DNA of 64,000 nt from a virus. Where the stretch lies: IMG/VR virus record IMGVR_UViG_3300049893_003686; one strand, written 5' to 3'. A program made the position numbers and the translations under genes. This document shows, in pieces, positions 2,616 through 25,792 of this stretch. How positions within the stretch are numbered: position 1 is the stretch's first letter; each line of letters begins with the position of its first letter. The notes beneath the pieces are model-generated. The model did no database searches, was not told where the DNA came from, and saw nothing but the letters and a program-made list of their open reading frames with translations.

Positions 2616-2846
2616 ATGGAGAGCGACGAGATGATTTCTTATACGGCAATTTATTGGTATGGTGAAGATTCTAATACTTATGGGGTTTCTAGGGTTTCTG
2701 GGGATTATAGGGCTTCTTGGGCTTCTGGGACTTCTTGGGATTCTGCGGCTTCTAGTGTTTCTAGGGCTTCTAAGGTTTATAGGGCTTCTTGGGTTTCTGG
2801 GGTTTTTTGGGGTTATGTAATCTCCAGAGCAAGGAGTGGTCAATGA
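2616..2846 (+). CDS. Array-B unit ORF (Gly/Ser/Ala/Val-rich low-complexity small protein).
   Basis: Conserved linker ATG (2631, or upstream ATG at 2616). TGA overlaps the next ATG at 2843-2846. Confidence 0.3.
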   Translation: MESDEMISYTAIYWYGEDSNTYGVSRVSGDYRASWASGTSWDSAASSVSRASKVYRASWVSGVFWGYVISRARSGQ

Positions 2847-3031
2847 TCTCTCATGCGACAGTTTATCTTTATGGTGGAGCTTATTGGACTTCTAAGGCTT
2901 CTAAGGCTTCTGGGATTTCTAAGGCCTCTTGGATTTCTAAGGCTTCTGGGGTTTCTAGGGTTTCTATGGCTTCTAGGGCTTCTGGGGGTTATGGGAGCTA
3001 TATAGTCTCCAGAGCAAGAGGTGGTAGATGA
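2843..3031 (+). CDS. Array-B unit ORF ([12 protein letters not shown] + (K/R)AS repeats).
   Basis: ATGA overlaps at both ends. SD-like AAGGAGTGG upstream. Confidence 0.3.
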
Positions 3032-3279
3032 TTTCTCATGTGGGAGTTTATTTTTATTCTGTGGCTTCTTTGGTTTCTGGGGCTTCTTTGGTTTCTAGGG
3101 CCTCTAGGGCTTCTAGGGCTTCTAGGGCTTCTGTGGCTTCTGGGGCTTCTGGGGCTTTTAGGATTTCTGGGGTTTCTGGGGCTTCTTTGGTTTCTATGAC
3201 TTCTGGGGTTTCTGGGGCTTCTGGGGTTTCTGGGGCTTCTGGGGTTTCTGGGGTTTCTGGGGCAAGAGGTGGCAGATGA
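3028..3279 (+). CDS. Array-B unit ORF ([11 protein letters not shown] + GAS/GVS repeats).
   Basis: ATGA overlaps at both ends. Confidence 0.3.
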
Positions 3280-3551
3280 TTTCTCATGTGGGAGTTTATT
3301 TTTATTCTGGGGCTTCTTGGGTTTCTTGGGTTTCTGGGGTTTCTGTGACTTCTTGGGTTTCTAGGGTTTCTGGGGTTTCTGGGGTTTCTGTGACTTCTGG
3401 GGTTTCTGGGGTTTCTGGGGCTTCTGGGGTTTCTAGGGCTTCTAAGGCCTCTATGGTTTCTGGGGCAAGAGGTGGTAGATTATTTCTCATGTGGGAGTTT
3501 ATTGGTACGGCGAGGTTACTGGAGCGGACCTATTCGTATAGGAATAGATAA
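3276..3551 (+). CDS. Array-B terminal unit ORF, which reads out into unique sequence.
   Basis: Begins with an ATGA overlap. The next linker is mutated (ATTA), so the ORF continues into unique sequence. Confidence 0.25.
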
Positions 3552-3589: not shown

Positions 3590-4078
3590 ATGAATATCTT
3601 CCTAGTAGATACTGATCCAATTAAAGCAGCACAAGCGTTATGCGACAAACATTGTATCAAAATGATTCTAGAAACAGCACAATTGCTATCAACATCAGTA
3701 TACCTCACAAAAGGAGATTTAACAGGGCTGTATAAGCCAACCCATTTAGCACATCCATGTACTAAGTGGGCCTCAGAGTCTAAGATTAATTTTAATTGGC
3801 TAAAGAACCATGGATTAGGCCTTCTGTCGGAATATACGTTTCGATATCGAAAAGAGCATAAGTCAACACAGATAATATTAAAATGCACTAATGAATCTCT
3901 ACCAGACTTACCTGCTACAGATTTTGTTCAGGTAATGCCAGAGGTATATAGACGACCAGATCCTACAGAAGCATATAGGGCTTATTATAATAGTGCAAAG
4001 TATATGATGGCCACGTGGACAAGGCGGCAGCCTCCAGAATGGTGGTGCTCACAATTGTACGTAGAAAAGCACGAATAA
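3590..4078 (+). CDS. Hypothetical protein (conserved-looking N-terminus MNIFLVDTDPIKAAQALCDKHCIKMILETAQLL).
   Basis: 162-aa ORF, the first ordinary gene after the repeat region. No motif could be assigned confidently. Confidence 0.55.
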   Translation: MNIFLVDTDPIKAAQALCDKHCIKMILETAQLLSTSVYLTKGDLTGLYKPTHLAHPCTKWASESKINFNWLKNHGLGLLSEYTFRYRKEHKSTQIILKCTNESLPDLPATDFVQVMPEVYRRPDPTEAYRAYYNSAKYMMATWTRRQPPEWWCSQLYVEKHE

Positions 4079-4114
4079 AGATAATCTATTATAAAATAAT
4101 ATTGAGGAGAATAG

Positions 4115-4477
4115 ATGCAGCCATCAGATATGATAATTAATCAAAAAGACTGCAGAGGGCTATTCGAGCAGCTGATCACATCGCAACCCTATGCTTTGAT
4201 AGATAAAATAAAGCTAGGTGAATTATCCAATGCGCGTATGGGAGAAGCGCTGGAGATAATAGGTCAGCTTAATTACGAATTGATACATGATATCTATGCC
4301 AATTTAGTAAATCATCATAACTCATTGGTACGTGGTGGCATAGTTTGCGGACTAGCCCTACATTCAGAAAATGTACAAGCTAGGCAATTACTTAAACAGA
4401 TGGCTGACTCAGATCCATCAGAGACAATACGATACGCTGCCGGACAAATATATTTCGAACATAGGTCAGTAAAATGA
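4115..4477 (+). CDS. Hypothetical protein, HEAT/PBS-lyase-like helical repeat.
   Basis: 120-aa ORF. The segment VRGGIVCGLALHSENVQARQLLKQMADSDPSETIRYAAG resembles a HEAT-like repeat. RBS GAGGAG upstream. Confidence 0.45.
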   Translation: MQPSDMIINQKDCRGLFEQLITSQPYALIDKIKLGELSNARMGEALEIIGQLNYELIHDIYANLVNHHNSLVRGGIVCGLALHSENVQARQLLKQMADSDPSETIRYAAGQIYFEHRSVK

Positions 4478-4965
4478 TGCAGCATGTAGTTATCCATGAA
4501 GGGTCACTCCTTGATTCTAAGGATCAGTACTTGGCCCACCAGACAAACTGCATTTCAAAAAGAGCAGCACACCTAGCAGATGAGGTATTTGCTAAATATC
4601 CATATGCGAACGTTTATTCCAAACGCACATCTCAGGATGAACCAGGAACAATCATCATTAGCGGTAACGGCAACGATGAAAGATACGTCATCAATATGAT
4701 GGGGCAGGTCTATCCAGGCAAACCTAAGTATAGCGAGAGTGCCACTGATGGGTACAGAGCCCGATATAGATATTTTTTTCTATGCCTAAAAGCTATATCT
4801 AAAATAGATAATTTGCAAAGTATTGCATTTCCATGGCAGATAGGCTGTGGCGCAGCAGGTGGCAACTGGGAAGATTACTATAATTTACTAAATAAATTCG
4901 CGAAACATTTATCAGGTAAAGTAGAAGTAAAGATATATAGACTCCCAGATGATGATCATATATAA
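4474..4965 (+). CDS. Macro-domain-like protein (Poa1/ADP-ribose-processing family candidate).
   Basis: ATGATG overlaps the previous stop. The pattern LAHQTNCISKRAAHLADEVFAKYPYAN resembles the macro (Poa1p-like) core. Sits beside NAD salvage genes. Confidence 0.4.
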   Translation: MMQHVVIHEGSLLDSKDQYLAHQTNCISKRAAHLADEVFAKYPYANVYSKRTSQDEPGTIIISGNGNDERYVINMMGQVYPGKPKYSESATDGYRARYRYFFLCLKAISKIDNLQSIAFPWQIGCGAAGGNWEDYYNLLNKFAKHLSGKVEVKIYRLPDDDHI

Positions 4966-4988
4966 TTTGTTATAACAAAGGTAAATTC

Positions 4989-5387
4989 ATGAAACAAATG
5001 GCAAGTCCTGGATGGAAGAACAAATCAGGTTACTATATCATAGAAAGAGAGGAATGGCGAGCAGAAATATATCCAAGCTCCAATAATTATGCCTGGCGTC
5101 TAGATCGTGCAGGATATACCCGATTCTCGGGAGAAGATAATAATTTAGAAGAGATTAAAAGAAATTTAGAATTAATACTAGGATATAGATTTCTTGTTAA
5201 AGAAGAGATTGTTATTGATAAATATTGCACATGTGGCGGATGCGCAAGATTTACTGGTCGATGGCAAGTACTTGACTGTATGGGCGAGGAAGAGCCGATC
5301 TTTCAGAGTGAGGATGATGCATTAGCTTGGATAGCCAATCAAGACATGAAGCACGAAATAGCTAATCTGGCACACAAAATGCAATAA
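4989..5387 (+). CDS. Hypothetical protein.
   Basis: 132-aa ORF in consistent orientation. Contains the Cys motif CTCGGCARFTGRWQVLDC. Confidence 0.5.
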   Translation: MKQMASPGWKNKSGYYIIEREEWRAEIYPSSNNYAWRLDRAGYTRFSGEDNNLEEIKRNLELILGYRFLVKEEIVIDKYCTCGGCARFTGRWQVLDCMGEEEPIFQSEDDALAWIANQDMKHEIANLAHKMQ

Positions 5388-5457
5388 TCTGTACATGTGA
5401 TACTCATATTAGCTTAACTTAATATTTGCATATCAGGATATATGTGGAGAACATAAC

Positions 5458-5697
5458 ATGTTATTTACGATAGGAAATAGAGAATTTGAATTTGCTAGAC
5501 AAACTTCTGAAATAGGCAAGCTCTTCTGTGGTATGTATAATACCGAGACTGATGCGTATATAGGGGTACATTTCTTTGTATCAAAACCGACTCATAAGTA
5601 TTGGGGATTTCAGCAAGATGAGTTGGGCGGAACTTTAATGAAGCAATTTGGATTAGGTCCAATAGCATTATTTGTGTGGGTGGCATATGGCGAATAA
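5458..5697 (+). CDS. Hypothetical small protein.
   Basis: 79-aa ORF. RBS GGAGAA upstream. Confidence 0.4.
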   Translation: MLFTIGNREFEFARQTSEIGKLFCGMYNTETDAYIGVHFFVSKPTHKYWGFQQDELGGTLMKQFGLGPIALFVWVAYGE

Positions 5698-6133
5698 AAA
5701 TAGCTTGAGAGTAGCACATAAAGGGTTGGCCTATCATGAAATGACTTCAGATGTTTATGATGGTCCAAGATCTATAAGTGACCGAAAATGGTGGAAGCGA
5801 TATGCCGCGAAGCGCAAAAGACGCACTGAAGATAATGAAATTGTAGAACAGATTGGCAAGTAAGACCTGTACCACAAGTCTCTTAATACTAAGAGACGTA
5901 TGATAGAGAAATTAGGATGGATATAAATAAACGAAATTTAGAGGATGCTGGCGATCACATAGAAGCACACTTTTTGCTCAGAGCGTGGTTATCACGAACT
6001 ATGGTAAGTATTATATATGCTTAGGCTATACTGACAGTTAATTATAGTAATTATTATTGCCTTTACTTACCTCGTATAACGCATCATCAGAGATAATACG
6101 CGGTAACTGAAATCTTATTACTAGAGATTTTAT

Positions 6134-7243
6134 ATGCATGATGAAATCAATGTTGGAGTTGTAATCGGAAGATTCCAACCTCTACACATCTGTCACCTCT
6201 CAGAGGCGATCTTGCCCGCCCTAGATGAATCAGACACATTAATCATTCTTCTCGGATCATCGCACAGACCAAGTACACCTAAAAATCCATGGACGGACTC
6301 TGATAGGGCGGAGATGATTCATCTTGGCCTAAAAGACGCAGGGATGACCGTAGAGGCATATGGAAATTGGTTATTAAAGATAGGTGCGAGTGACACTACT
6401 CAAAAGACGGTATATATTGTTCCAATAAGAGACTTTGCTTATTCAGATATTCAGTGGCAGATGCAAGTGCAGGAGAAAGTAAGAGAGATCGTTTCATCCT
6501 GCTCAAATCTCGATAGCAAATATGAATCTGCAAAAATTAATCTATTTGGAGTAGATCGTGATGATACCACATTCTACCTTAAATTATTTCCTCAATGGAT
6601 AGATAAAACAACTAAGCGGGATAAGAGCTCCGATCAAGTTAAGGGCACAATGTGCAGAGAGCTGATTTTTGCTAGCGGCGCAAAAGGTCATGGGGAGTGG
6701 GGAAAGTACTTGTCACCCCAGGTATCAGAATTCATATTAAATTGGTGTAACTCAATATCATTTTCATCACTTAAAGAAGAGTTTGATTTTCTCAAACGAT
6801 ATAAGGCAGACTTATCTGGATATAAATATCCAATTATATTTCAAACAGTAGATAATATTATTCTATATAAGGGGCACGTCTTCTTGCTAAATAGGAGGAG
6901 TTTCCCTGGAAAAGGATTGCTATCTTTACCGGGCGGGTTTATAGATTCCAGTCTAACTCTACTTCAGAGCGCGCTATCTATAGCCAAAGAGAAAAGTAAA
7001 CTTAATCTTAAATTAGACTGGCTTGTAGCAAGCAAGACTTTCGATTATCCCGGACGCTCACTAAGAGGCAGGACTATCACTACAGCATTTCTCTGGAAAT
7101 TACCCGAGACAATGAATGTAATAGTTGCAGGGGCAAATAAAGAACACTGGTATCAGCTATGCGATATCATGAAAATGAGTGATTTCTTATATGAAGATCA
7201 CTATGATATCATAATTGATATGCTACAGCTTAGCAAGACATAA
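6134..7243 (+). CDS. nadM: Bifunctional NMN adenylyltransferase (NadM-type) with a C-terminal Nudix-like domain (NatV-like).
   Basis: N-terminal GRFQPLHICH motif of the (H/T)xGH nucleotidyltransferase class (archaeal-type NMNAT). C-terminal LPGGFIDSS...EK segment is a degenerate Nudix box. Adjacent to NadV. Confidence 0.65.
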   Translation: MHDEINVGVVIGRFQPLHICHLSEAILPALDESDTLIILLGSSHRPSTPKNPWTDSDRAEMIHLGLKDAGMTVEAYGNWLLKIGASDTTQKTVYIVPIRDFAYSDIQWQMQVQEKVREIVSSCSNLDSKYESAKINLFGVDRDDTTFYLKLFPQWIDKTTKRDKSSDQVKGTMCRELIFASGAKGHGEWGKYLSPQVSEFILNWCNSISFSSLKEEFDFLKRYKADLSGYKYPIIFQTVDNIILYKGHVFLLNRRSFPGKGLLSLPGGFIDSSLTLLQSALSIAKEKSKLNLKLDWLVASKTFDYPGRSLRGRTITTAFLWKLPETMNVIVAGANKEHWYQLCDIMKMSDFLYEDHYDIIIDMLQLSKT

Positions 7244-7287
7244 GTCGATATACGACGCATATAACTTATTTTCGGAGGAATATACCA

Positions 7288-8768
7288 TGGAATTTTCAAA
7301 ATTTCTACATACTGACAGTTATAAATTAGCTCACTTCGAGCAATATCCAGCAGCCAAGAAGATGGTTGCTTATGGTGAATTTCGCAAGCCGTATCCTAAT
7401 ATTAAAGATGAGCGAATTGTTGTATACGGCATACAGTATTTAGTAGATAAATTTTTAAACAAACAGTGGACGGTAGAAGAACTTAATGCCGCATCACAAT
7501 TTGCCAGCAAACATAATGCTGGTTTAAAAGAATACCCATTTCCTCGGAAATTATTTACCGACATGATTGCTGAAAATAACGGATACTTTCCAGTTAAGGT
7601 AGAGGCTGTTCCGGACGGAACAGTGGTATACCCACATGTGCCAGTGTATCAGATTACAGCAGAGGGGAAGTATTCGGGTCTGGTAACATACATCGAAAGT
7701 TTTCTGTCGCACTTATGGTATTCAACTACTGTAGCAACTCTTTCACGACATACTAAAACACTTATCAAAAATGCGTTCGATCTTACTGTAGATGATAATA
7801 TGAGGTGGTTACTTGGGAGTCGATTGCATGATTTTGGTTATCGAGGCTGTGCGTCTGATGAGCAGGCTATGATCGGAGGTGCCGCACACCTACTTAATTT
7901 TGATGGTACAGATACGATGCTAGCTGCTGCATATGCACACTATCAAAATAATGGAGAAGAATTTGCACAAAGTATTCCAGCTACAGAGCATTCGGTAATG
8001 ACATCATGGCCATCAGAAGTTGATGCAGTTCGAAATATGATCCACCACTACGGAGATGGTGTATTTGCCTGTGTAGCTGATAGCTATGACTATAAGCACT
8101 TTCTTCATCATGTATTGCCAGCAGTAGCAGCTGATGTGCAGGCTAAGGGCGGCACAATGGTAATTAGACCAGACTCTGGCGATCCACTTAAATCAGTGAT
8201 AGACGGACTCTATGCTTGTCAAAGATATTTTGGAATATCCTATAATAAAAAGGGATTTAAGGTACTGAACAATAGCGCAATAATTCAAGGTGACGGCATT
8301 AATATAGAGATAGTTGATAACATACTTACTGAGGTTATTAATAATGGATTCAGCGCACAGAACGTAGCCTTCGGCATGGGCGCCGGCCTATTACATAAAC
8401 ATAATAGAGATACTATGAGTTTTGCCACTAAGTTATCATATATTGAATATGCAGATGGGACAAGTAGGAACATTATGAAGGCACCTAAAACGGATCCGGA
8501 GAAGTACTCACTACCTGGTATACTTAAGGTAATTAATGATGACCTATTGAAGGTTGGAACAGAAGAAGATCGTGGTAATAACTTGCTGATAACAGTGTAT
8601 GATGGCAGACCAGTAGATTTTAAAGAGAAATTTTCTAACATCCGCGCTAAGGTAGAACATCAATGGAATCTCTTACCGCCTAAAGTAGAAAACCTATTTA
8701 CAGATAAGTTAAAGATGAAGATAAATGAGACAATCTTTAACTTAAGAAATAGCACGTCCAAATCCTAA
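7288..8768 (+). CDS. nadV: Nicotinamide phosphoribosyltransferase (NAMPT/NadV).
   Basis: TDSYKLAHFEQYP and DFGYRGCASDEQAMIGGAAHLLNFDGTDT closely match the NAMPT signature (DSYK..., FGYRGVSS...HLVNFKGTDT). RBS GGAGGA lies 8 nt upstream of ATG 7288. The longer ORF from 7215 overlaps the upstream gene. Confidence 0.9.
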
Positions 8769-8812
8769 AATAGTATTTAGGAATAAATTTCACCATCTCA
8801 ATAAAAAATCTT

Positions 8813-9016
8813 ATGATAACAAGATTAAAACAAAGTCTGAATTTGATTTTAAAAAAACTATCACAGGAGCATAAATCTTCTTTAGATTATGATATTCCTG
8901 AGTTAAATACAATATGCTGGAAATCCCCAGCGTATCCAACTCAAATTCATAAAGAAATACAGTTATTTGATAATGATATAATTAAATGGGAGAGGTATTT
9001 CCCAAGAGTGGAGTAG
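8813..9016 (+). CDS. Hypothetical small protein.
   Basis: 67-aa ORF. Confidence 0.35.
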   Translation: MITRLKQSLNLILKKLSQEHKSSLDYDIPELNTICWKSPAYPTQIHKEIQLFDNDIIKWERYFPRVE

Positions 9017-9168
9017 AATTAAGATGGCTAATATAATATATAGATTATTGCTGATTATGGCAGTACCAGCATTAATATTTGGATTATTCACTAAATGCTG
9101 GGCACCACTCAATATCTATAGAAAGTGTATACTTGTGAATTTTGAATAAAGTTATTAAGGATTAGTAT

Positions 9169-9417
9169 ATGGAAAGAACGCAAATACAAGAAAGGCTCAG
9201 GTTATTAACGGAACGACAGACACTTTTAAGAGAATATTTGATGCGTCCACTGCAAGTGGCTAAAGATAAATCAAAATTATCAATAGTTGATATTAAGAAG
9301 CATCAGGTCTTACCACAACACCTATGGAAAGAAATGCAACTGCAATATTTTAAAACCTCAAAGGAAATTGAAACACTTACTGCTCAAATTGTCGATCACG
9401 GTCAAAATAAAATATGA
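9169..9417 (+). CDS. Hypothetical protein.
   Basis: 82-aa ORF. RBS AAGGA upstream. ATGA overlaps the next ORF. Confidence 0.45.
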   Translation: MERTQIQERLRLLTERQTLLREYLMRPLQVAKDKSKLSIVDIKKHQVLPQHLWKEMQLQYFKTSKEIETLTAQIVDHGQNKI

Positions 9418-9809
9418 TACCGACTACGCTAAATACTTTAGAACAAGCACTTACAACTGGATTTTGGGAAGACCTTTTAGAGGTTTTACTTAAGCTTAAA
9501 GCTGATAAACAAGAATTGCCTAAGCAATTTAGAGGAGTGAAGAATATATATAAGGCTAAGGACCTCAAAGGGCTCTGTTTTGATCGATTAGGTGATGATC
9601 CAGATTGTGAATGGATTTTAGATGATAGACTATGGGGAGTTTTTCAAAAGCATAAAATTACAGGATACTTCGCCCATCTCGATGATAGCACGACTACATA
9701 TATTGGAACTTACTTCATGGAAGGATATGCATATAAAGCAGATGTGCTTCATAAAATGGATATGAATATTGTAGTGCGAGCGGCAGAGGAATTAAAACCT
9801 AAGGTATAA
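9414..9809 (+). CDS. Hypothetical protein.
   Basis: 131-aa ORF that begins with an ATGA overlap. Confidence 0.5.
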   Translation: MIPTTLNTLEQALTTGFWEDLLEVLLKLKADKQELPKQFRGVKNIYKAKDLKGLCFDRLGDDPDCEWILDDRLWGVFQKHKITGYFAHLDDSTTTYIGTYFMEGYAYKADVLHKMDMNIVVRAAEELKPKV

Positions 9810-9837
9810 TTCATACTTGCGGGAAGCAAAGACACTG

Positions 9838-10827
9838 ATGCTAATTCCATGGAAAACAATACGCTCATTGCTATTTCGTCTAGATGCGGAAGATGCACAT
9901 AGTTTAGCAATTAAATATTTAAAAATATTATCCAAAGCACTCCCAGCTACATCACCAAATATTAGCTCCCCTGTAGAAGTATTCGGCGTACAATTTCCTA
10001 ACCCTTTAGGCTTAGCAGCTGGATTTGATAAAGACGGTGAAGCCATACTTGCCTGGCAAAGACTTGGCTTCGGATTTGTTGAAGCAGGGACAGTAACCGC
10101 ACATCCTCAACAAGGAAATCCTCGTCCGCGTCTAACTAGGATACCAGAGCACTATGCGCTTAAAAATTGTATGGGCTTCAATAATGCCGGAGCCAAGGCC
10201 TTAGGAATTAAGCTGCAAAAGTTACGCGACAAAGAAATAGTAAATATTCCAATAGGAATTAATATTGGAAAATCAAAAATAGTATCAAATGAAGAGGTAA
10301 TACAAGACTATTGCAAGTCGTTCTCATATATAAAAGACGTAGCTGATTATGTCGCAATAAATATCTCAAGCCCAAACACTCCAAGCTTACGAGATCTTCA
10401 GACTGCTAATATGATTAAAAAAATCATGGATGCTTTAATGGAATTAAATCGCAAGCAGGTACCGATACTTATCAAACTTTCTCCAGATTTGGATGATGAT
10501 ACATTAATAAGCTGTGCCATAGGAGCTATTGACTGTGGAGCCCAAGGTCTTATATTAGCAAATACATCTACCTCTACAGGACTGATGCCTAACATGAGCG
10601 GAGGAGTTTCCGGTCAACCTATACGAGAGCGAGCGAATTCCACAATTAAACTCATTAGGACTGCCGTTAGTGATAAGATTCCATTAATTGGAGTTGGAGG
10701 AATAATTGATCATAATGATGCCAACGAGAGGATTAAATCAGGAGCTACGCTTATACAGGCATACACTGGATTTGTTTATGGTGGACCATCGTTTGCAAAA
10801 GACATCATTCGACAATTAGATATATGA
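9838..10827 (+). CDS. pyrD: Dihydroorotate dehydrogenase, quinone-dependent class 2 (PyrD).
   Basis: Near-collinear with E. coli PyrD: FRLDAEDAH, NPLGLAAGFDKDGEA, CMGFNNAGAKAL, INIGKSK, VAINISSPNTPSLR, IGVGGI. ATG 9838 gives MLIPWKTIRSLLFRLD. Confidence 0.9.
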   Translation: MLIPWKTIRSLLFRLDAEDAHSLAIKYLKILSKALPATSPNISSPVEVFGVQFPNPLGLAAGFDKDGEAILAWQRLGFGFVEAGTVTAHPQQGNPRPRLTRIPEHYALKNCMGFNNAGAKALGIKLQKLRDKEIVNIPIGINIGKSKIVSNEEVIQDYCKSFSYIKDVADYVAINISSPNTPSLRDLQTANMIKKIMDALMELNRKQVPILIKLSPDLDDDTLISCAIGAIDCGAQGLILANTSTSTGLMPNMSGGVSGQPIRERANSTIKLIRTAVSDKIPLIGVGGIIDHNDANERIKSGATLIQAYTGFVYGGPSFAKDIIRQLDI

Positions 10828-10828
10828 A

Positions 10829-11035
10829 ATGCAGTTCATAGATAAAAATACATACATTGTAATGCTATGGAATATGATACATGGCTGGATACCAGTCACA
10901 AACCCTTTAACTCAAGAGCTAGCAGAAGCCGCATGGCATAGTTTAACGTGTTCAGGCACACTAAATTCCAAATACGAAGACGGCAATTACTTTAAGATCT
11001 TCATACATAGCACTACAGATACCATACAGGATTAA
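10829..11035 (+). CDS. Hypothetical small protein.
   Basis: 68-aa ORF immediately after pyrD. Confidence 0.4.
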   Translation: MQFIDKNTYIVMLWNMIHGWIPVTNPLTQELAEAAWHSLTCSGTLNSKYEDGNYFKIFIHSTTDTIQD

Positions 11036-11039
11036 CAAA

Positions 11040-12137
11040 ATGAAGCTACCGACATTATTTTCTCGTACCTCCAGTGGGGCTATCCAAATATGGGAAGTTG
11101 AAGTAATTGATAATAAACATCGCGTAATATCAGGACAGATTGATGGGCAAAAAGTTCAGTCAGAATGGACTGTGTGCGTATCAAAAAATATCGGAAAAAG
11201 CAATGAGACATCTCCAGCTCAGCAGGCCGAACTAGAAGCAGGAGCTAAGTGGAAGAAGAAATTAGAGTCCGGCTATAAGGAGTCTATAGCCGATATAGAT
11301 CAGGTAGGTTTTATTGAGCCAATGCTAGCCAAATCATTTAGTGATTATGAACACGAGATCAAATATCCTGTGTTTAGTCAGCCTAAGTATGACGGGATTA
11401 GGTGTGTAGCTACAAAAAATGGCCTCAGTAGTAGAGGTGGCAAAAGATTCTCTAGCGTACCTCATATAATGGAGGCACTACGACCAATATTTGATAAATT
11501 CCCGCAGCTAGCTTTTGACGGCGAACTATACTGCGATAAATTTGCTAATGATTTTAATCAAATATGCTCTCTCGTAAAGAAGTCAAAGCCATCTACTCAA
11601 GACCTTAAAAATAGTGCTGAAGCAATAGAGTATTGGGTATATGATATTCCCAATGATGAGATGAACATATTTTCAGACCGATATGAGCTACTAGCCACTT
11701 TATTAAAAGATGCGCCAAAGTGCATTAGGATTGTTCCCACACGAATAGTCTATGATAAGTCCCAATTAGATAACGAATATTCTTCATACCTAGAGTTAGG
11801 ATATGAAGGACAGATGGTTCGACTTAATGGCCCTTATGAGAATAAGAGAAGCAAGTTTCTCTTAAAAAGAAAAGAATTTGTTGATAATGAATATCTGATA
11901 GTTGATATAATTGAGGGCGACGGCAACAAGAGTAATATGGCAGCCTCTATGCTATTGCGAGACTCTACTAGTAAAGAATTTAATTCAAATATTAAAGGTA
12001 ATAGACAATATCTACGCAAACTCTTAATAGACAAGAATAACCTTTTAGGCAAACTGGCAACAGTGAAATATTTTAATTTAACGCCTGATGGTATACCTAG
12101 ATTCCCATATGTGATTGCCATAAGAGATTATGAGTAG
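11040..12137 (+). CDS. ATP-dependent DNA ligase (small phage/viral type).
   Basis: Motif I KYDGIRC, motif IV EGQMVR and motif V FLLKRK. 365 aa, typical of minimal viral ligases. Confidence 0.8.
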   Translation: MKLPTLFSRTSSGAIQIWEVEVIDNKHRVISGQIDGQKVQSEWTVCVSKNIGKSNETSPAQQAELEAGAKWKKKLESGYKESIADIDQVGFIEPMLAKSFSDYEHEIKYPVFSQPKYDGIRCVATKNGLSSRGGKRFSSVPHIMEALRPIFDKFPQLAFDGELYCDKFANDFNQICSLVKKSKPSTQDLKNSAEAIEYWVYDIPNDEMNIFSDRYELLATLLKDAPKCIRIVPTRIVYDKSQLDNEYSSYLELGYEGQMVRLNGPYENKRSKFLLKRKEFVDNEYLIVDIIEGDGNKSNMAASMLLRDSTSKEFNSNIKGNRQYLRKLLIDKNNLLGKLATVKYFNLTPDGIPRFPYVIAIRDYE

Positions 12138-12161
12138 AGATATTACAATATAGGAGCGGCA

Positions 12162-13163
12162 GTGACTTTAAATAGTGATTGGCAAATGGCCAAAGTGACA
12201 GACCCTAATATAATAAATTTGGCTGTAGGGGAACCATACTTCCTGCAAAATGCATTGCGACAAAGTAATATTCTAGATAAATGTACTGTACGACTATCTG
12301 GTTTAGAGTACCCACCTTTTGGAGGAGAACCTAAATTAATTGAAGCTATCAAACGGTTGCCTAACTTCGGTGACTATAAGCATGTAGTAATTACTAATGG
12401 GGCAAAGCAGGCCATCTCAGCAGCACTGTATGCTGCAACTGAAGTTAGGCATGCCAAGCGACTCGTACATAGTGCCCCATACTGGCCGTCGTACCCAACT
12501 CTAGCATATCAATGTGGACTTCAGTTCTCTGAAATAGGGAGTGGGTTAGATACGGTAGTTGCCATAACATCGCCAAATAATCCAGATGGAATGCAGGTAT
12601 CGGAACAGAAGTGTTATATTTGGGACGCAGCATATGCGTCTCCTCTATATGGATATAAGGGGGATCATCCGACTGCTGAAGTAGCTATAGTAAGCCTAGC
12701 TAAGTCTTTAGGCATATCAGGGTTACGTATAGGAGCAGCACTTACAAATGATGATGTGCTGGCAAAGTACATGGCATATTTCGTTGAAATATCAACTAGC
12801 GGAGTATCTACAACAGCACAAGAGCAGTGTACAATGCTCATCAAGCATATACTTTCAGATGGAAGTGACGAATTCGCTTCAGTTATTGAGCGCGCTAGAA
12901 GCACACTATCGAACAATCGCAGCTTATTTCGTCAAGTATTATTACCGATTTGTGATGAGGCCAAATTTTCTCACGGTATGTTTGCCTGGTTTAAGCCCAA
13001 TAATAAAGTTGAATTCTCAAATATACTTGAGCATGCAGGAGTTAGGGTAGTAGATGGAGGGGCCTGCGGCGTTCAGGGATGGTTTAGAATGAGTTTAGGA
13101 CTGGATATAAATGCATTTACTGCAGCGATAGAAGCGATATCAACACATATATCAGATCAATAA
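12162..13163 (+). CDS. Class I/II PLP-dependent aminotransferase-like protein.
   Basis: VITNGAKQAISAAL and SLAKSLGISGLRIGAAL resemble the aminotransferase PLP-lysine motif (SxxKxxGxxGxRxG). GTG start. Confidence 0.55.
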   Translation: MTLNSDWQMAKVTDPNIINLAVGEPYFLQNALRQSNILDKCTVRLSGLEYPPFGGEPKLIEAIKRLPNFGDYKHVVITNGAKQAISAALYAATEVRHAKRLVHSAPYWPSYPTLAYQCGLQFSEIGSGLDTVVAITSPNNPDGMQVSEQKCYIWDAAYASPLYGYKGDHPTAEVAIVSLAKSLGISGLRIGAALTNDDVLAKYMAYFVEISTSGVSTTAQEQCTMLIKHILSDGSDEFASVIERARSTLSNNRSLFRQVLLPICDEAKFSHGMFAWFKPNNKVEFSNILEHAGVRVVDGGACGVQGWFRMSLGLDINAFTAAIEAISTHISDQ

Positions 13164-13186
13164 AATTCATAATATTAGGAGATAAT

Positions 13187-13396
13187 ATGCCGTTATTTGA
13201 TTACAAATGTAAGTTATGTAATAGTAAAACAGAGTATCTACTCAAAAATAGCGATGAGATTCCCTATATATGCGAGAATTGTGGGGCAGTATTATCATTA
13301 GTTAAAGAGATATCTAGAAGCACATTTGCATTAAAGGGCTCTGGATGGTATAAGGACCTCTATGGAAATAAATCAGAGACGTCATCAAGTAATTAA
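13187..13396 (+). CDS. FmdB-like zinc-ribbon small protein.
   Basis: CKLCNS...CENCG is a two-CxxC ribbon. RBS AGGAGA upstream. Confidence 0.5.
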   Translation: MPLFDYKCKLCNSKTEYLLKNSDEIPYICENCGAVLSLVKEISRSTFALKGSGWYKDLYGNKSETSSSN

Positions 13397-13557
13397 TTAC
13401 ACCAGTGTAGCTAAGCATACATATTAAGATTGATTACTGCATAAGGAAATATGCAGGCTATGCAATCACAAAAGCTGGTTACCAACGAAGCTTTCAGCTC
13501 ACAATATAATAGATGAGTAAAGTATAAAGATTCACTCTCTTCAAGGAAAGATTACAA

Positions 13558-14136
13558 ATGACTATATGGTTCACCAGCGACCTTCATTTCGGACACGCAA
13601 ATATCATCAAATACTGCAAAAGACCCTATTCTAATGTTGATGATATGAATGAAGCTCTAATAGATAATTGGAATAGCATAGTGCAGAAGGATGATATTGT
13701 ATATGTCCTAGGAGATTTTGCATACGGAAGGCACTTTACACCAGATAAAGCAGCGCGTGTGCTACAGAGATTATCAGGGATTAAAGTTCTAATTGCCGGA
13801 AACCATGATGAAGACAACTTAAGATCTTCACAATTTCGCTCTAAGTTCGAAGAGATACATTCATTATTTGAGCTAAAAATTCCACCAAAGCGTGGTGAAC
13901 GACACGGCACTATGATTGTAATGTGCCATTACCCTATGCGCAAATGGAATCAGTCACATAGAGGATCTATTCATCTGTTCGGACATGAGCATGGGTCTTC
14001 GCCTGAAGATAAGGCATCTCGTAGTATGGATGTTGGAGTAGATTGCCATAATTATTACCCAATTTCTTTTGAAGAAGTTTTGGAAAAAATGGAAACTAAG
14101 ACCTGGAAGCCCAAACGAAATAATAATGAGGAATAG
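13558..14136 (+). CDS. Calcineurin-like metallophosphoesterase.
   Basis: Motifs SDLHFGH, GDFAYG, GNHD and GHEHG. Confidence 0.8.
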   Translation: MTIWFTSDLHFGHANIIKYCKRPYSNVDDMNEALIDNWNSIVQKDDIVYVLGDFAYGRHFTPDKAARVLQRLSGIKVLIAGNHDEDNLRSSQFRSKFEEIHSLFELKIPPKRGERHGTMIVMCHYPMRKWNQSHRGSIHLFGHEHGSSPEDKASRSMDVGVDCHNYYPISFEEVLEKMETKTWKPKRNNNEE

Positions 14137-14139
14137 AAA

Positions 14140-14592
14140 ATGAAGAAGGCATATATCTACGCACCGTTACCACAAGCAGTTCATCATTATTTTCCCAAAG
14201 ATCGAGGAGGAGATGATGACAGCGAACCACACTGTACGATCTTATATGTTGGCGAGATACAAGATTCACTAATACCTAAGTTAAAACAGATTCTTGATGA
14301 AGCTACAAGTGATATGCCACCTATCAAATGTAGTTTTGGACAATTAAAATCATTTCCGGGCGGGGAATACGGAGTGCCGTGGTACGTAGAGATAGATGCG
14401 GATCAAGCACTAGAGCAATTACATAAATCATTATGGAAGAACCTAGAAAACGCAGGTATTGATGTACAGCACAGGTTTAAAAACTATAAGCCACACGCTA
14501 CACTCAAATATCTTCCTGAAGGTAAGAAATATTCCGGAGATATTCCTGTAGGCGACTTCAGTATTTCTGTGGTAGAATTAGATATCCAATAA
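14140..14592 (+). CDS. 2H phosphoesterase (LigT / 2'-5' RNA ligase-like).
   Basis: Two H-x-T-x motifs (HCTILYVG and HATLKYL), typical of the 2H family. Confidence 0.6.
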   Translation: MKKAYIYAPLPQAVHHYFPKDRGGDDDSEPHCTILYVGEIQDSLIPKLKQILDEATSDMPPIKCSFGQLKSFPGGEYGVPWYVEIDADQALEQLHKSLWKNLENAGIDVQHRFKNYKPHATLKYLPEGKKYSGDIPVGDFSISVVELDIQ

Positions 14593-14627
14593 CCATAATT
14601 ATAGTATAATTAGAAGTAATATCAATT

Positions 14628-17222
14628 ATGAATCCAGGCAAATATACACTACAAGCACAGTCTCTATTTATTGACAGCCAGCGAATTGCTAAAGCATATC
14701 AGCACCAGGCAATTGAGCCCGAGCATATGCTGAAGGCACTATTGCAAAATAAGCATGTCTGCAGTGCATTAAGCAAATATACTATCATTAGCGAGCTTGA
14801 GCGTAAAATAGATTTAGAACTACATAAGATACCTCAAGTGCAGGCAGTGAATTATTTGTCACCACGATTTCTTAAAATTGCTTCTGCAGCAGAGGTAATC
14901 GCTACAAAAGCAAACGTTAAGACCGACATAGTGCATTTCTTACTAGCTCTTACCGACGCACGTGTAAATACTTCGATGAGCGGAAGAATATTGCGCGATG
15001 CGGGCTTGACCAGAGAGTATATCGAAGGTGGTATGGCAAGAGCTGGTAAGCCAAAGCAGAAAGCAACAACGGACTCTGCAGTTAGCAAATACGCCATTGA
15101 TCTCACTCAGCGCGCTAGGGACGGGAAAATAGACCCTATAATTGGCAGGGACGAGGAGATACGTAGAATCATTCAGGTTCTCTCCCGACGTTCGAAGAAT
15201 AGTCCAATTCTAATAGGCAAACCAGGTGTAGGGAAAAATACAATTATAAATGGGCTTGCACAGCGAATTGCGGCAGGAGATGTCCCATCCCCACTAATAG
15301 ATTGTAGAATCATGGCGCTAGATATGGGAGCGCTGTTGGCCGGAGCATCATTGCGTGGCCAATTCGAAGAGCGCATGAAGGCAGTAATTGCTGAGGTAAA
15401 TCAAGAAGATGAGAATATCATTTTGTTTATCGATGAAATCCATACATTGGTAGGAGCCGGTGGAGAGGGGGCATCTGATGCTAGTCAGATGCTAAAACCC
15501 CCGCTTGCTCGTGGCGAGATTCAGGTACTTGGAGCTACCACACCAGACGAATATCGCAATTCAATCGAGAAAGATAAGGCTTTGGAGCGTAGATTCCAAC
15601 CCATTCTTGTCGAAGAACCATCATATGATGAGACATTGCGAATTTTACGCGGAATAAAGACCAAATATGAAGTTCATCACGGGGTTCGCATCCAAGATGC
15701 TTCCCTATCTGCTGCCATAAAGTTCTCACAACGGTATATATCTGGACGACATCTACCAGATAAAGCCATTGATTTAATTGATGAGGCAGCCTCTAGGTTG
15801 CGGGTGGCAATAGATTCTGTGCCAGATGAGCTTGATAGTGAAAGTAGAAAGCTAACTCAATTAAAGATGGAATTAGCTGCAATTCATGGTGACTCTGGAC
15901 ACGATACGCACGAGCATAAGAGTAGATTGGAGCATCAAATTTCAGAGGCGGAGAAATCAGTATCAGGATTGAAGTCCAGATGGGAATCCGAGGTTAGCCT
16001 TATACAATCAATTAGGGCTATCAAGGAAGGTATAGAAGAGTCTAGCGCTAAGCTAGAATCCGAAACTAGAAGTGGAAATATAAGCAAGGCCTCAGAATTA
16101 AAGTACGGACAACTACAACGTCTAAAGGCAGATTTAGAAGTAACTACACGCGATTTAAAATCACTACAAAAAGATGCCCCGCTTATCAAAGAAGAGGTAG
16201 ATCCTAGCGATATTGCCGGCGTAGTAGGTGACATTACAGGAATTCCAATTGCATCAATGCTAGAGTCCGAAAAGGAAAAGCTGCGCAACATGGAACAGTA
16301 CTTATCATCACGTGTAATTGGACAAAAGGAGGCATTAAAGGCGATATCTCAAGCCATTCGCCGTAGTCGCTCAGGCCTTAATGATCCAAATCGACCAGTA
16401 GGTAGCTTCTTTTTTCTGGGCCCAACAGGTGTCGGGAAAACTGAGTTAGCTAAAGCGCTTACCCAATTTCTCTTTGATGACGAACGATCTATGATTCGCT
16501 TGGATATGAGTGAATTCCAAGAAAAGCATACTGTAGCGCGACTTATCGGAGCTCCTCCAGGATATAAAGGTGCCGATGATGGAGGGCAATTAACTGAAGC
16601 CGTCAGACTTAAACCATACTCAGTCATCCTATTTGACGAAGTAGAAAAAGCGCACCCTGATATATTCAATATATTATTGCAAGTACTTGATGATGGTCGA
16701 CTAACAGATAGTCAGAGTAGGCTCGTAGATTTCAAGAATACGGTTATTATTATGACATCAAATGTAGGTTCGCAGCATCTACTTACAGCTACAGCCAGTG
16801 ATGGCAGTCTGCCTGATGAGGCAAAAAATGCAGCATTCTCCGATCTACGAAAGTTATTTAGACCAGAATTTCTTGGAAGAATTGATGACGTAATCATGTT
16901 TCACGGTCTCACCAGAAATAATATAGAACATATTGCCAACATTCAACTAAAGAAAGTTTCAGGAATGTTGGCGACACGTAAATTAACGATGAATATATCA
17001 GAAGCAGCACTTAAGGCCATAGTAGATGCTGGGTTTGAGCCACAATTCGGAGCACGACCATTAAGAAGAGCAATCCAGCGTTGGCTGCAAGATCCATTAT
17101 CTTCAGCTATTCTTGAAGGGGGCTACACAGAAGGTGACACCGTATCTGTAGATTTAGCAGAGGATGATGAAAATACAGGCCTTATATTTAGGCGTATAAA
17201 CACTAATGTGAAAAGCAACTAA
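14628..17222 (+). CDS. clpB: ClpB/Hsp104-type AAA+ disaggregase (two AAA modules plus an N-domain).
   Basis: Clp_N repeats (AIEPEHMLKALLQ). Walker A1 GKPGVGKNT. Coiled-coil M-domain. Walker A2 FLGPTGVGKTELAKAL. Sensor PEFLGRID. Confidence 0.9.
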   Translation: MNPGKYTLQAQSLFIDSQRIAKAYQHQAIEPEHMLKALLQNKHVCSALSKYTIISELERKIDLELHKIPQVQAVNYLSPRFLKIASAAEVIATKANVKTDIVHFLLALTDARVNTSMSGRILRDAGLTREYIEGGMARAGKPKQKATTDSAVSKYAIDLTQRARDGKIDPIIGRDEEIRRIIQVLSRRSKNSPILIGKPGVGKNTIINGLAQRIAAGDVPSPLIDCRIMALDMGALLAGASLRGQFEERMKAVIAEVNQEDENIILFIDEIHTLVGAGGEGASDASQMLKPPLARGEIQVLGATTPDEYRNSIEKDKALERRFQPILVEEPSYDETLRILRGIKTKYEVHHGVRIQDASLSAAIKFSQRYISGRHLPDKAIDLIDEAASRLRVAIDSVPDELDSESRKLTQLKMELAAIHGDSGHDTHEHKSRLEHQISEAEKSVSGLKSRWESEVSLIQSIRAIKEGIEESSAKLESETRSGNISKASELKYGQLQRLKADLEVTTRDLKSLQKDAPLIKEEVDPSDIAGVVGDITGIPIASMLESEKEKLRNMEQYLSSRVIGQKEALKAISQAIRRSRSGLNDPNRPVGSFFFLGPTGVGKTELAKALTQFLFDDERSMIRLDMSEFQEKHTVARLIGAPPGYKGADDGGQLTEAVRLKPYSVILFDEVEKAHPDIFNILLQVLDDGRLTDSQSRLVDFKNTVIIMTSNVGSQHLLTATASDGSLPDEAKNAAFSDLRKLFRPEFLGRIDDVIMFHGLTRNNIEHIANIQLKKVSGMLATRKLTMNISEAALKAIVDAGFEPQFGARPLRRAIQRWLQDPLSSAILEGGYTEGDTVSVDLAEDDENTGLIFRRINTNVKSN

Positions 17223-17278
17223 TATAGTCCTGCAGTAACGGAAATCATAATAATGACTACCTCCTATAAAGAGAATAT

Positions 17279-25567: not shown

Positions 25568-25643
25568 GCGCCTGTAGCTCAGCGGATAGAGTACTTGTCT
25601 TCTAAATAAGGTGTCGTAGGTTCGAATCCTACCAGGCGCGCCA
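25568..25643 (+). tRNA. tRNA-Arg (anticodon TCT), CCA-encoded.
   Basis: Hand-folded. Acceptor GCGCCTG/CAGGCGC. D stem GCTC/GAGT. Anticodon stem CTTGT/ATAAG with loop CTTCTAA (U33, TCT, A37). T-arm GTAGG-TTCGAAT-CCTAC. Discriminator G then CCA. Confidence 0.85.
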
Positions 25644-25708: not shown

Positions 25709-25792
25709 GGGCCAGTAGACGCGCTCCGCTCATAACGGAGTAAGGGTAATTTGGTTCTGAAAATGTGGGTTCAAGTCCCACCTGGCCCACCA
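25709..25792 (+). tRNA. Aberrant tRNA-like gene, copy 1. It has a CAU anticodon stem-loop, a canonical T-arm and acceptor, and encoded CCA. The D-arm region is only 8 nt and there is a 24-nt extra region.
   Basis: Acceptor GGGCCAG/CTGGCCC followed by A and CCA. T-arm GTGGG-TTCAAGT-CCCAC. Stem CTCCG/CGGAG with loop CTCATAA. A byte-identical copy lies at 42249-42332. Confidence 0.45.

Follow-up and report, generated by a model that had tools for sequence, protein, structure and literature searches.

The window, meaning the whole stretch of 64,000 nt that was analysed, carried genes for a nicotinamide phosphoribosyltransferase (NAMPT), a NadM-like protein and a macrodomain protein, all on the + strand (Table 1). 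The original prediction had placed these three ORFs at essentially the same coordinates, and only the ATG of the NAMPT gene shifted, from 7288 to 7287, with the end at 8768. Positions 5134-8243 were matched at 100% identity by an independent assembly (Logan SRR35532387), so this region is not an assembly artefact. The three small ORFs between the macrodomain gene and nadM were also called as genes in the independent assembly. They had zero matches in Pfam, PHROG, NCBIfam and PADLOC and no homologues across 30 related macrodomain loci or 84 viral NadM loci.

Upstream of the macrodomain gene, the DenV-like product matched Pyr_excise with 32.2 bits against the Pfam cut-off of 23. The stop of the HEAT-like gene overlapped the macrodomain start by 4 bp (ATGA), as read directly from the sequence, and its 120-aa product had no homologue in the related macrodomain loci (n = 30). 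Consensus scans of the gap before nadM gave nothing decisive, and such scans found no convincing terminator between the macrodomain gene and nadM.

Table 1. Features of the locus, with positions counted from the first nucleotide of the window.
Feature	Position	Strand	Basis or remark
DenV-like pyrimidine-dimer DNA glycosylase	3590..4078	+	First gene of the denV-HEAT-macro run; Pfam Pyr_excise 1.4e-7, phrog_624 4.6e-52
HEAT-repeat-like protein, 120 aa	4115..4477	+	Pfam HEAT_2 1.1e-4, below threshold
Macrodomain protein, 163 aa	4474..4965	+	BT1257/DarG/Poa1p/TARG1 class
Three small ORFs (132, 79 and 63 aa) between macrodomain gene and nadM	4989..5863	+	Function not assigned by profiles
AT-rich intergenic gap, 270 bp	5864..6133	.	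Parts macro-side genes from nadM-nadV; read directly
NadM-type NMN adenylyltransferase with Nudix-fold domain, 369 aa	6134..7243	+	Homology to 2qjo and 2qjt
Degenerate Nudix box, residues 268-290, GFIDSSLTLLQSALSIAKEKSKL	6935..7003	+	Alignment and residue numbering
Nicotinamide phosphoribosyltransferase NadV/NAMPT, 493 aa	7287..8768	+	Profiles, structures, motifs

The NAD+ salvage pair

The identity of the NAMPT, predicted at the outset, was confirmed by several lines of evidence. The protein scored 417.5 bits with NCBIfam PRK09198, above the cut-off of 405, and matched solved NAMPT structures with E-values from 2e-74 to 1e-65, phrog_448 with 8.7e-117, and the Pfam families NAPRTase and NAMPT_N with 8e-34 and 5e-13, respectively. 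The motifs HDFGYRG (H181, D182), ATEHS (H235), RPDSGD (R294, D296), QGDGI (D336) and FGMGAGLL were intact, as in a KVP40/NadV-type Nampt with its catalytic residues. A GGAGGA ribosome-binding site was located 7 nt upstream of the ATG, and the gene followed nadM with a spacing of 43 bp.

The 369-aa protein matched the Synechocystis NadM-Nudix enzyme (2qjo) with 3.9e-48 over residues 4-361, 2qjt with 9.7e-32 over the full length and phrog_395 with 8.4e-41. NCBIfam models for bifunctional NMNAT/Nudix proteins reached 218.6 bits, under the equivalog cut-off of 397, and identity to NadM homologues of sequenced phages was at most 34%. The NMNAT domain comprised residues 1 to about 200 and the Nudix-fold domain residues 236 to 369, approximately. 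Both NMNAT motifs, GxFxPxHxxH and T/SxxxR, were present: the archaeal-type GRFQPLHICH singled out in the original prediction was found at residues 12-21 and GTMCR at residues 171-175. Within the NadM clade, H18 and H21 of HxxH as well as T172 and R175 were invariant.

Phage Nampt and Nmnat together form the NAD+ reconstitution pathway NARP2 (Osterman et al., bioRxiv 10.1101/2024.02.11.579819), and jumbo phages commonly carry it. The salvage pair proposed for this locus corresponds to NARP2, with an NadM-type NMNAT 43 bp upstream of the Nampt in the same phage. Judged by sequence, nadM-nadV (6134-8768) is a NARP2-type NAD+ reconstitution operon of a huge phage, a system that is already known. 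All four clade loci for which context was available (the window, L001, L002 and L043) had the order nadM then nadV, and of the 84 viral NadM loci 73 had NAMPT within 10 kb. An Adps/Prs partner would point to NARP1; no Prs-like ORF was present among the annotated ORFs of the window, which samples the genome in part. The NAMPT would convert nicotinamide and PRPP to NMN, which the N-terminal NMNAT domain would adenylate to NAD+. We infer this enzymology for the window proteins from homologues in which it is established. The pair may compensate for NAD+ that host NADase defences deplete, or it may just increase NAD+ for the phage. As one more instance of NARP2, from an uncultivated huge phage, it adds no new biology.

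The degenerate Nudix half

The C-terminal half had been described as Nudix-like. This holds for the fold, since the alignment to 2qjo and 2qjt continued through residues 225-365 and showed this Nudix-fold domain and the ADPRase domain of NadM to be homologues, but not for the Nudix signature. Relative to GX5EX7REUXEEXGU, the box showed L274 for Glu, S282 for Arg, I283 for Glu and K287 for Glu, with E286 kept, so four of the five key residues were replaced in the alignments and the protein lacked an intact signature. Pfam NUDIX scored 18.4 bits, below its threshold of 21.1. The degenerate box was shared by all eight clade members, i.e., the window protein and its seven closest relatives, whereas the box was canonical for 97 sequences among the 120 best homologues and for 120 among 135 additional cluster representatives. 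At 50% identity the clade formed one cluster in a set of 1.84 billion representatives, matched with 647 bits (next match 346). Similar degenerate boxes also occurred in the unrelated NadM-Nudix lineages P0132, P0186 and P0348.

Loss of the metal-binding and catalytic signature predicts no hydrolysis of ADP-ribose (ADPR) or NAD(H), and the Nudix half is probably a non-catalytic domain. As far as can be judged from the sequence (L274, S282, I283, K287), the active Nudix half on which the original prediction depended is not upheld. Within the clade, identity was 73% in the Nudix domain and 60% in the NMNAT domain; this stronger constraint suggests that the Nudix domain was kept for a non-catalytic role. 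The role may be structural or, as in NrtR, ADPR binding, and by this analogy the half is possibly an ADPR-binding domain. The perturbed signature of Slr1690/NrtR abolished ADPR pyrophosphatase activity and retained ADPR binding (PMC2330246). Residues 215-320 of the window protein showed a weak NCBIfam match to an ADPR-responsive repressor.

The domain could still be an active hydrolase with a non-canonical active site, which would make the protein a normal bifunctional NadM-Nudix enzyme. Its strong conservation, the remaining Glu of the box (E286) and the motifs RSLRGRTIT and EDH, which flank the box and were invariant in canonical and degenerate members, are consistent with this. We nevertheless regard it as improbable: across the clade, non-acidic residues had taken the place of the signature Arg, of two of its Glu and of the Glu upstream, and in a related Nudix protein a comparable perturbation left a kcat of about 1e-4 s-1, with a 600-fold higher rate after the signature was restored (PMC2330246). 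There is also a slim chance that the domain is an ADPR sensor, in which ADPR released by host NADase defences would bind and thereby activate the fused NMNAT or make it more stable. In that case NAD+ would be rebuilt conditionally, without the steady expense of PRPP/ATP that is reported for NARP2, and the degenerate boxes of P0132, P0186 and P0348 would represent repeated enzyme-to-sensor conversions. Pipelines label the protein 'bifunctional NMN adenylyltransferase/Nudix hydrolase', yet the hydrolase signature is gone clade-wide while the domain is conserved. That an enzyme domain was retained for another purpose inside a counter-defence pathway is a proposition that can be put to the test with this Nudix half.

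The macrodomain protein and its neighbourhood

The suggestion that the product of 4474-4965 was macro-like was borne out by an AlphaFold model (pLDDT 92), whose top structural matches were all macrodomains, and by a family profile that matched BT1257 at 4.2e-6. The Pfam profile fell short, with 19.8 bits (E 8e-4) for Macro PF01661 against a gathering threshold of 22. The protein has the macro fold and belongs to the DarG/TARG1/Poa1p/BT1257 (ALC1-like/Poa1p-like) class. N25 and the loop GCGAAGG (residues 124-130) were conserved in the family. N25 was invariant and aligned to the catalytic-site Asn (DarG N22, AdfM N23; Asn-Cys in DarG). Strand 71-78, YVINMMGQ, aligned with HIINFPTK of DarG by strand register and motif, not by superposed coordinates, and placed Q78 at the Lys. 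The catalytic Lys (DarG K80, AdfM K78, TARG1 K84) was therefore missing, and conservation of Q78 across the family was 90% or higher.

The neighbourhood was sampled in 30 IMG/VR loci around relatives of the macrodomain. Neighbours were PARP (22 loci), NADAR (19), DenV (8) and also UvdE. In seven loci the DenV homologue lay 0.5-1.9 kb upstream of the macrodomain gene; in one more it was also upstream, at a distance of 9.2 kb. In Bacillus phage FADO, the macrodomain gene was two genes from a COG3236/NADAR gene. The PARP, NADAR and DNA-lesion-enzyme partners point to a phage-encoded module that writes and erases ADP-ribosylation, perhaps the more interesting lead. From these conserved neighbours, the macrodomain most likely removes or processes ADPR adducts in a setting of DNA damage or ADP-ribosylation reversal and would not act as an NAD+ salvage step. 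PARP and NADAR were not found in the 64-kb window, so the proposed partners are absent or lie elsewhere in the incompletely sampled genome.

Two more specific functions were weighed against the same data. An orphan DarG2-like antitoxin, which would strip DarT2-derived ADPR from phage DNA, has a published precedent in AdfM (PMC13309987). The PADLOC DarG model (3.7e-5), the alignment of N25 and the pairing of relatives with NADAR, a DarT1-reversing fold, agree with such a role. It is rather unlikely, as the equivalent of DarG K80/AdfM K78, aligned by strand register, was a near-invariant Gln, tblastn at E 1e-5 missed the PhiKZ-type AdfM phages, and the PARP linkage suggests marks made by the phage and not by the host. 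Slightly less likely still is a Poa1p-like ADP-ribose-1''-phosphate phosphatase that clears by-products of NAD+-dependent RNA repair. Phage homologues found by tblastn were annotated as Appr-1-p processing proteins, phrog_335 was named 'phosphatase', the catalytic Lys position held another residue, and the window encoded a 2H/LigT phosphoesterase, RlaP, Thg1, Ro60/TROVE and a PP-loop enzyme. However, KptA/Tpt1 was not found among window ORFs of at least 120 aa, the 2H gene was 9 kb away, and the subfamily neighbours were PARP, NADAR and DNA-repair enzymes instead of RNA ligase or KptA.

The original prediction had also assigned the macrodomain to the same cassette as the salvage pair. This part was not sustained, and a linked cassette is weakly supported. 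NadM or NAMPT occurred within 10 kb of the macrodomain in none of the 30 related loci. The nearest macrodomain relative, L005, had a syntenic PTH2-YqeY-IF3 region and neither NadM nor NAMPT in the fetched flank of 8 kb. In L043, of the window's NadM clade, nadM-nadV was present and no macrodomain was found within 10 kb. We therefore favour, with fair though not strong confidence, two separate units: nadM-nadV as NARP2 with a non-hydrolytic Nudix half, and denV-HEAT-macro (3590-4965) with a macrodomain outside NAD+ salvage. The ATGA overlap that couples the macrodomain gene to the HEAT-like gene and the 270-bp gap before nadM support this separation.

Against it stand the short distance of 1.2 kb by which the macrodomain gene precedes nadM on the shared strand, with no convincing terminator in between, its distance from nadM in L001 (7.3 kb) and in L002 and L004 (about 9.7 kb), and the viral contig L082, where a BT1257-like macrodomain lay inside a NadM-Prs-...-NAMPT run. 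These observations, together with NADAR inside about 10 of the 84 NadM-NAMPT loci, would fit an integrated NAD+/ADPR counter-defence island. There the macrodomain would free ADPR from Thoeris gcADPR, ADPR-1''P, O-acetyl-ADPR or ADP-ribosylated targets, and the adjoining cassette would rebuild NAD+ from nicotinamide. A division of labour of this kind was predicted by Iyer et al., with Nudix enzymes taking up what phage Macro and NADAR produce; their comparative work also noted NADAR beside NadM/NadV. Such an island is the most plausible of the alternatives but remains unlikely. Besides the result for the 30 loci, a macrodomain of this type was found in only one of 84 viral NadM loci, and L005 and L043 indicate independent gain or loss of macrodomain and salvage pair. 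With a degenerate Nudix half, the step using the released ADPR (ADPR to AMP and ribose-5-P) is predicted to be missing, and Prs was not seen in the window. Iyer et al. 2022 (PMC9503650) give frequencies among jumbo phages of 56% for Macro and 33% for NadV, which makes chance proximity in an accessory region plausible. Adjacent NAD- or ADPR-themed genes in such regions should not be taken as an operon.

Comparison with known systems

Vibrio phage KVP40 carries NadV (Nampt) and NatV (Nmnat-Nudix). Both protein families were shared with the window and were adjacent, on one strand and in a large phage. As in KVP40/NARP2, the NAMPT catalytic motifs were intact and the NMNAT HxxH and T..R were present. 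The window pair, a putative NAD+ reconstitution system, differed in the degenerate Nudix signature of its whole clade.

The macrodomain differed from DarG and TARG1 by Gln78 at the catalytic Lys and carried Ala at the place of TARG1 Asp125. BT1257 (2afc/2fg1), a protein without assigned function, shared both changes. AdfM (PhiKZ gp104), an orphan DarG2-like macrodomain, is likewise a stand-alone DarG-class macrodomain of a jumbo phage; unlike AdfM, the window protein had no counterpart of the active-site Lys, and close sequence kinship was not detected by tblastn at E 1e-5.

The bacterial NadM-Nudix enzymes of Synechocystis (slr0787, 2qjo) and Francisella (2qjt) were collinear with the window protein over the full length and had the same two-domain architecture. 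They carry RELKEE or RELFEE where the window protein had SIAKEK, and the latter fell short of the NCBIfam equivalog cut-offs. The Nudix domain of NrtR is a relative of the ADPR pyrophosphatase domain of NadM; its signature is perturbed, it is non-catalytic, and it is kept as a ligand-binding module. NrtR fuses this domain to a winged-helix DNA-binding domain, whereas the window protein fuses its putative ligand-binding Nudix domain to an enzyme.

Gene content and arrangement of the region

The window is an accessory region of an uncultivated huge phage, with nearly all genes on the + strand. Besides the features listed in the table, it encodes HSP20, IF3, an SspB-like protein, deaminases, a dUTPase, FtsK, proteases and Dam. 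PTH2, YqeY and IF3 were present on related contigs of up to 200-480 kb; the contig of the window has 65 kb. A megablast search of positions 4000-9000 against 50,697 phage records gave no match, and no sequenced phage close in DNA was found. Positions 5134-8243 were exactly reproduced in an independent assembly.

Features of the window and their coordinates
Feature	Position	Strand	Remark
GGGCTTCTR repeat arrays	1-123, 190-950, 2677-3466		9-bp tandem repeat
DenV-like pyrimidine-dimer glycosylase	3590-4078	+	
HEAT-like protein	4115-4477	+	120 aa
Macro candidate	4474-4965	+	163 aa
Three small ORFs	4989-5863	+	relatives not detectable
AT-rich gap			270 bp, between small ORFs and nadM
NadM-like protein (nadM)	6134-7243	+	369 aa
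NAMPT (nadV)	7287-8768	+	43 bp 3' of nadM
Dihydroorotate dehydrogenase	9817-10827		Pfam 1.9e-72
Class I/II aminotransferase	12162-13163		
RNA-repair/tRNA-related cluster	14140-18409, 25937-26560, 30858-31628, 37853-39460		
tRNA-Arg(tct)	25568-25643		
81-nt Rfam tRNA matches	25709-25789, 42249-42329		42.1 bits each
Prok-E2_D, Prok-JAB and ThiF (E1-like) domains	55495-58239		three adjacent genes

The macro ATG overlaps the stop codon of the HEAT-like gene (ATGA), and the sole sizeable non-coding gap of the region separates the macro side from nadM. The macro gene is thus physically coupled to its upstream genes and set apart from nadM. A scan for promoter-like sites gave 33 hits where 25 were expected, and a terminator scan of the + strand between the macro gene and nadM found none. 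NCBIfam returned nothing for the macro, HEAT, DenV and small ORF products. In Pfam searches of all + strand ORFs of at least 120 aa and one - strand ORF, KptA/Tpt1, ART, SIR2, SLOG, NADAR and Prs were absent.

The repeat arrays reached about 84 copies and were interrupted by short spacers, each of which opened an ORF. They are open on both strands, giving G/A/S/R-rich translations on the + strand and PETPEAPE-like ones on the - strand. The only tRNA found by both Rfam and ARAGORN was tRNA-Arg(tct); the two identically scoring 81-nt matches were not called by ARAGORN. The RNA-repair cluster comprised a 2H/LigT phosphoesterase, ClpB, RlaP, a PP-loop (TilS-like) enzyme, a Thg1-like tRNA-His guanylyltransferase and Ro60/TROVE with vWA. 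KptA/Tpt1 and RNA ligase were not seen among window ORFs of at least 120 aa. The E2/JAB/ThiF trio is a phage-carried ubiquitin-like conjugation set.

The NAD+ salvage pair and its Nudix-fold domain

The nadV product matched Pfam NAPRTase (8e-34) and NAMPT_N (5e-13), phrog_448 (9e-117) and solved NAMPT structures (2e-74 to 1e-65), and exceeded the cut-off of NCBIfam PRK09198. The motifs HDFGYRG, ATEHS, RPDSGD and QGDGI were kept; in human NAMPT they carry the catalytic residues Asp, His, Arg and Asp. The original prediction of a NAMPT gene is therefore unambiguous. Its end agreed with the predicted coordinate, while the start lies one base before the predicted 7288, behind a GGAGGA ribosome-binding site.

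The nadM product aligned end to end with the NadM-Nudix enzymes of Synechocystis (2qjo, 3.9e-48) and Francisella (2qjt, 9.7e-32). In the NMNAT half, the T172/R175 motif did not vary among relatives, nor did the two His residues within GRFQPLHICH. Judged by homology, NAMPT and NMNAT are both intact in the window. The pair would convert nicotinamide and PRPP to NMN, then NMN and ATP to NAD+, and this rebuilding would counter NADase defences, as established for homologues. The predicted phage salvage pair was correct and corresponds to NARP2, the published Nampt plus Nmnat pathway, in which nicotinamide, PRPP and ATP serve to rebuild NAD+ and which, when transplanted, defeats Thoeris, DSR and SIR2-type defences (Osterman et al., bioRxiv 10.1101/2024.02.11.579819). 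About 1.1% of sequenced phages have it, and Nmnat accompanies Nampt in 94% of the phages that carry the latter (same source). NadV is present in 33% of jumbo phages, and all NadM phages have NadV too (Iyer et al., PMC9503650). NAMPT lay within 10 kb in 73 of the 84 IMG/VR NadM loci. In the clade that the window NadM forms with its closest relatives, nadM was followed by nadV in all four loci with context (the window, L001, L002 and L043). An IMG/VR scan for this clade gave only four distant relatives of 31-33% identity, so its context was taken solely from contigs in Logan, ENA and NCBI.

The dihydroorotate dehydrogenase and aminotransferase just downstream of the pair are auxiliary metabolic genes unusual for phages. 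Two related contigs (L001, 16077-16715; L002, 16184-16807) carried, 5-6 kb downstream of NAMPT and beside a short-chain dehydrogenase, a gene whose product of 207-212 aa weakly matches NAD_synthase (PP-loop); no counterpart of it was found beside the window's cassette.

The predicted fusion to a Nudix-like domain held for the homology, but the Nudix signature is lost at the level of sequence. Solved NadM-Nudix enzymes carry GGF-x4-E-x7-RELKEE, whereas the window protein reads GGFIDSSLTLLQSALSIAKEKSKL (L274, S282, I283, E286, K287). The seven closest homologues (P0122-P0128, 51-58% identity) have a box of the same type, [DSKE][IN]A[KR][ED]K. The canonical box begins with the eighth-closest homologue (identity at most 40%) and was found in 97 of the 120 best matches. 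When 1.84 billion 50%-identity representatives were searched without filters, the whole clade formed one cluster, with the window protein scoring 647 bits and the next match 346; the box was canonical in 120 of 135 further representatives. Partly degenerate boxes also occurred in a few unrelated lineages. The REUXEE residues of the full-length homologues P0132, P0186 and P0348 read KELQEK, RIIKDK and KILKKE, independent partial losses which suggest that the hydrolase half was inactivated repeatedly.

Mean identity inside the clade was 73% for the Nudix domain vs 60% for the NMNAT domain, so the Nudix domain is not decaying; synonymous sites were saturated among members of 55-58% amino-acid identity. 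The RSLRGRTIT and EDH motifs were invariant in canonical and degenerate members alike. KVP40 NatV reportedly has Nudix activity (Iyer et al.). A Nudix half that is still active is a less likely rival reading for the window protein. Slr1690, with a perturbed signature, has a kcat of about 1.4e-4 s-1 and gained 600-fold once the signature was restored, and NrtR Nudix domains, which are similar to the ADPRase domain of NadM, bind ADPR but do not hydrolyse it (Rodionov et al., PMC2330246). The lost signature and the steady conservation, together with these precedents, lead us to predict with good confidence that the window NadM acts solely as an NMNAT and that its Nudix-fold domain is non-catalytic. 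This domain may have been kept for a structural role or to bind ADPR.

The macrodomain and its neighbourhoods

By its sequence alone, the macro candidate was marginal, with Pfam Macro under threshold and BT1257 at 4e-3. It matched phrog_335 (7e-15) and the PADLOC DarG model (3.7e-5), and a family profile of 47 sequences matched BT1257 (4e-6) and DarG (0.013). These matches confirmed the macro fold that had been proposed for the gene. Phage homologues carry macro or Appr-1-p processing annotations, and a rival reading takes the protein as an Appr-1''-p phosphatase serving RNA repair. Another, an antitoxin against DarT2, touches on the DarG matches; the Lys that is catalytic in DarG, AdfM and TARG1, however, would correspond to a near-invariant Gln78 in this family, in a strand register taken from sequence alignment and secondary structure only. 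The family conserves H-Q-x-N25-C and G-C-G-A-A-G-G-x-W.

On the macro side, 30 IMG/VR loci with homologues at 41-58% identity were examined for neighbouring genes. A WGR-PARP_reg-PARP gene lay 1-3.5 kb upstream of the macro gene in 22 loci and NADAR downstream in 19, mostly within 0.5-1.8 kb. DenV was upstream in eight loci, in seven of them between PARP and macro, and UvdE was present in two. A widely sampled phage (L007-L009) showed the order PARP-rSAM-macro-UvdE-NADAR, and Bacillus phage FADO has a COG3236/NADAR gene two genes from macro. PARP, NADAR and DNA-lesion enzymes are the conserved neighbours with which this macro subfamily occurs, and the DenV-macro pairing of the window belongs to this pattern. 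The PARP, NADAR, UvdE and radical-SAM proteins of L007 were not found in the window by tblastn, so the PARP-macro-NADAR module is incomplete here. The macrodomain would act on ADP-ribose adducts, in a context of DNA damage or ADP-ribosylation reversal rather than salvage.

Outside the window, on related huge-phage contigs (L007-L009 and L012-L041), the arrangement WGR-PARP_reg-PARP, then DenV, UvdE or radical SAM, then macrodomain and NADAR recurred, in 22 of 30 IMG/VR loci. An NAD-dependent ligase and metallophosphoesterases were often nearby. The arrangement resembles a phage-encoded ADP-ribosylation write/erase set tied to DNA-lesion repair.

The original prediction had placed the macro gene in the salvage cassette, which the sampling did not bear out. 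None of the 30 macro loci had NadM or NAMPT within 10 kb, though two of the genomes sampled (L021/L115, L023/L107) do carry the pair, about 22-25 kb away. On L001, an Fpg/Nei glycosylase followed macro, with nadM 7.3 kb further on, and the macro-nadM distance on L002/L004 was about 9.7 kb. The locus of the closest macro relative (L005, 61-63% identity) keeps the PTH2-YqeY-IF3 backbone, and its fetched 8 kb flank had neither NadM nor NAMPT, including at the YqeY-IF3 site that they occupy in L001. Conversely, L043 has the clade's nadM-nadV and no macro within 10 kb. From the NadM side, a macro gene detectable by this family occurred in one of 84 loci and NADAR in about ten. The exception (L082, IMGVR_UViG_3300013101_000073, 8675-13786) was a single + strand run of a NadM-Nudix gene with canonical box, a Prs-like gene, genes for a 105-aa repeat protein, a 139-aa HAD-like protein and a BT1257-like macrodomain, and NAMPT. 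This run and the published linkage of NADAR to NadM/NadV (Iyer et al.) show that salvage cassettes can recruit ADPr-processing genes, so an integrated island of macro and nadM-nadV is not an absurd idea. Sampling from both sides, however, shows that the two units are gained and lost independently. Membership of the salvage cassette is therefore the weaker reading at this locus, and weaker still because the ADPR-consuming Nudix step appears broken.

Comparison with known systems

NARP2 and phage macrodomains are already known, the latter occurring in 56% of jumbo phages (Iyer et al., PMC9503650), and it has also been proposed in the literature that Nudix enzymes are supplied with the products of Macro or NADAR. 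New is a conserved NadM clade whose Nudix half lacks the catalytic signature, a variant of a known system.
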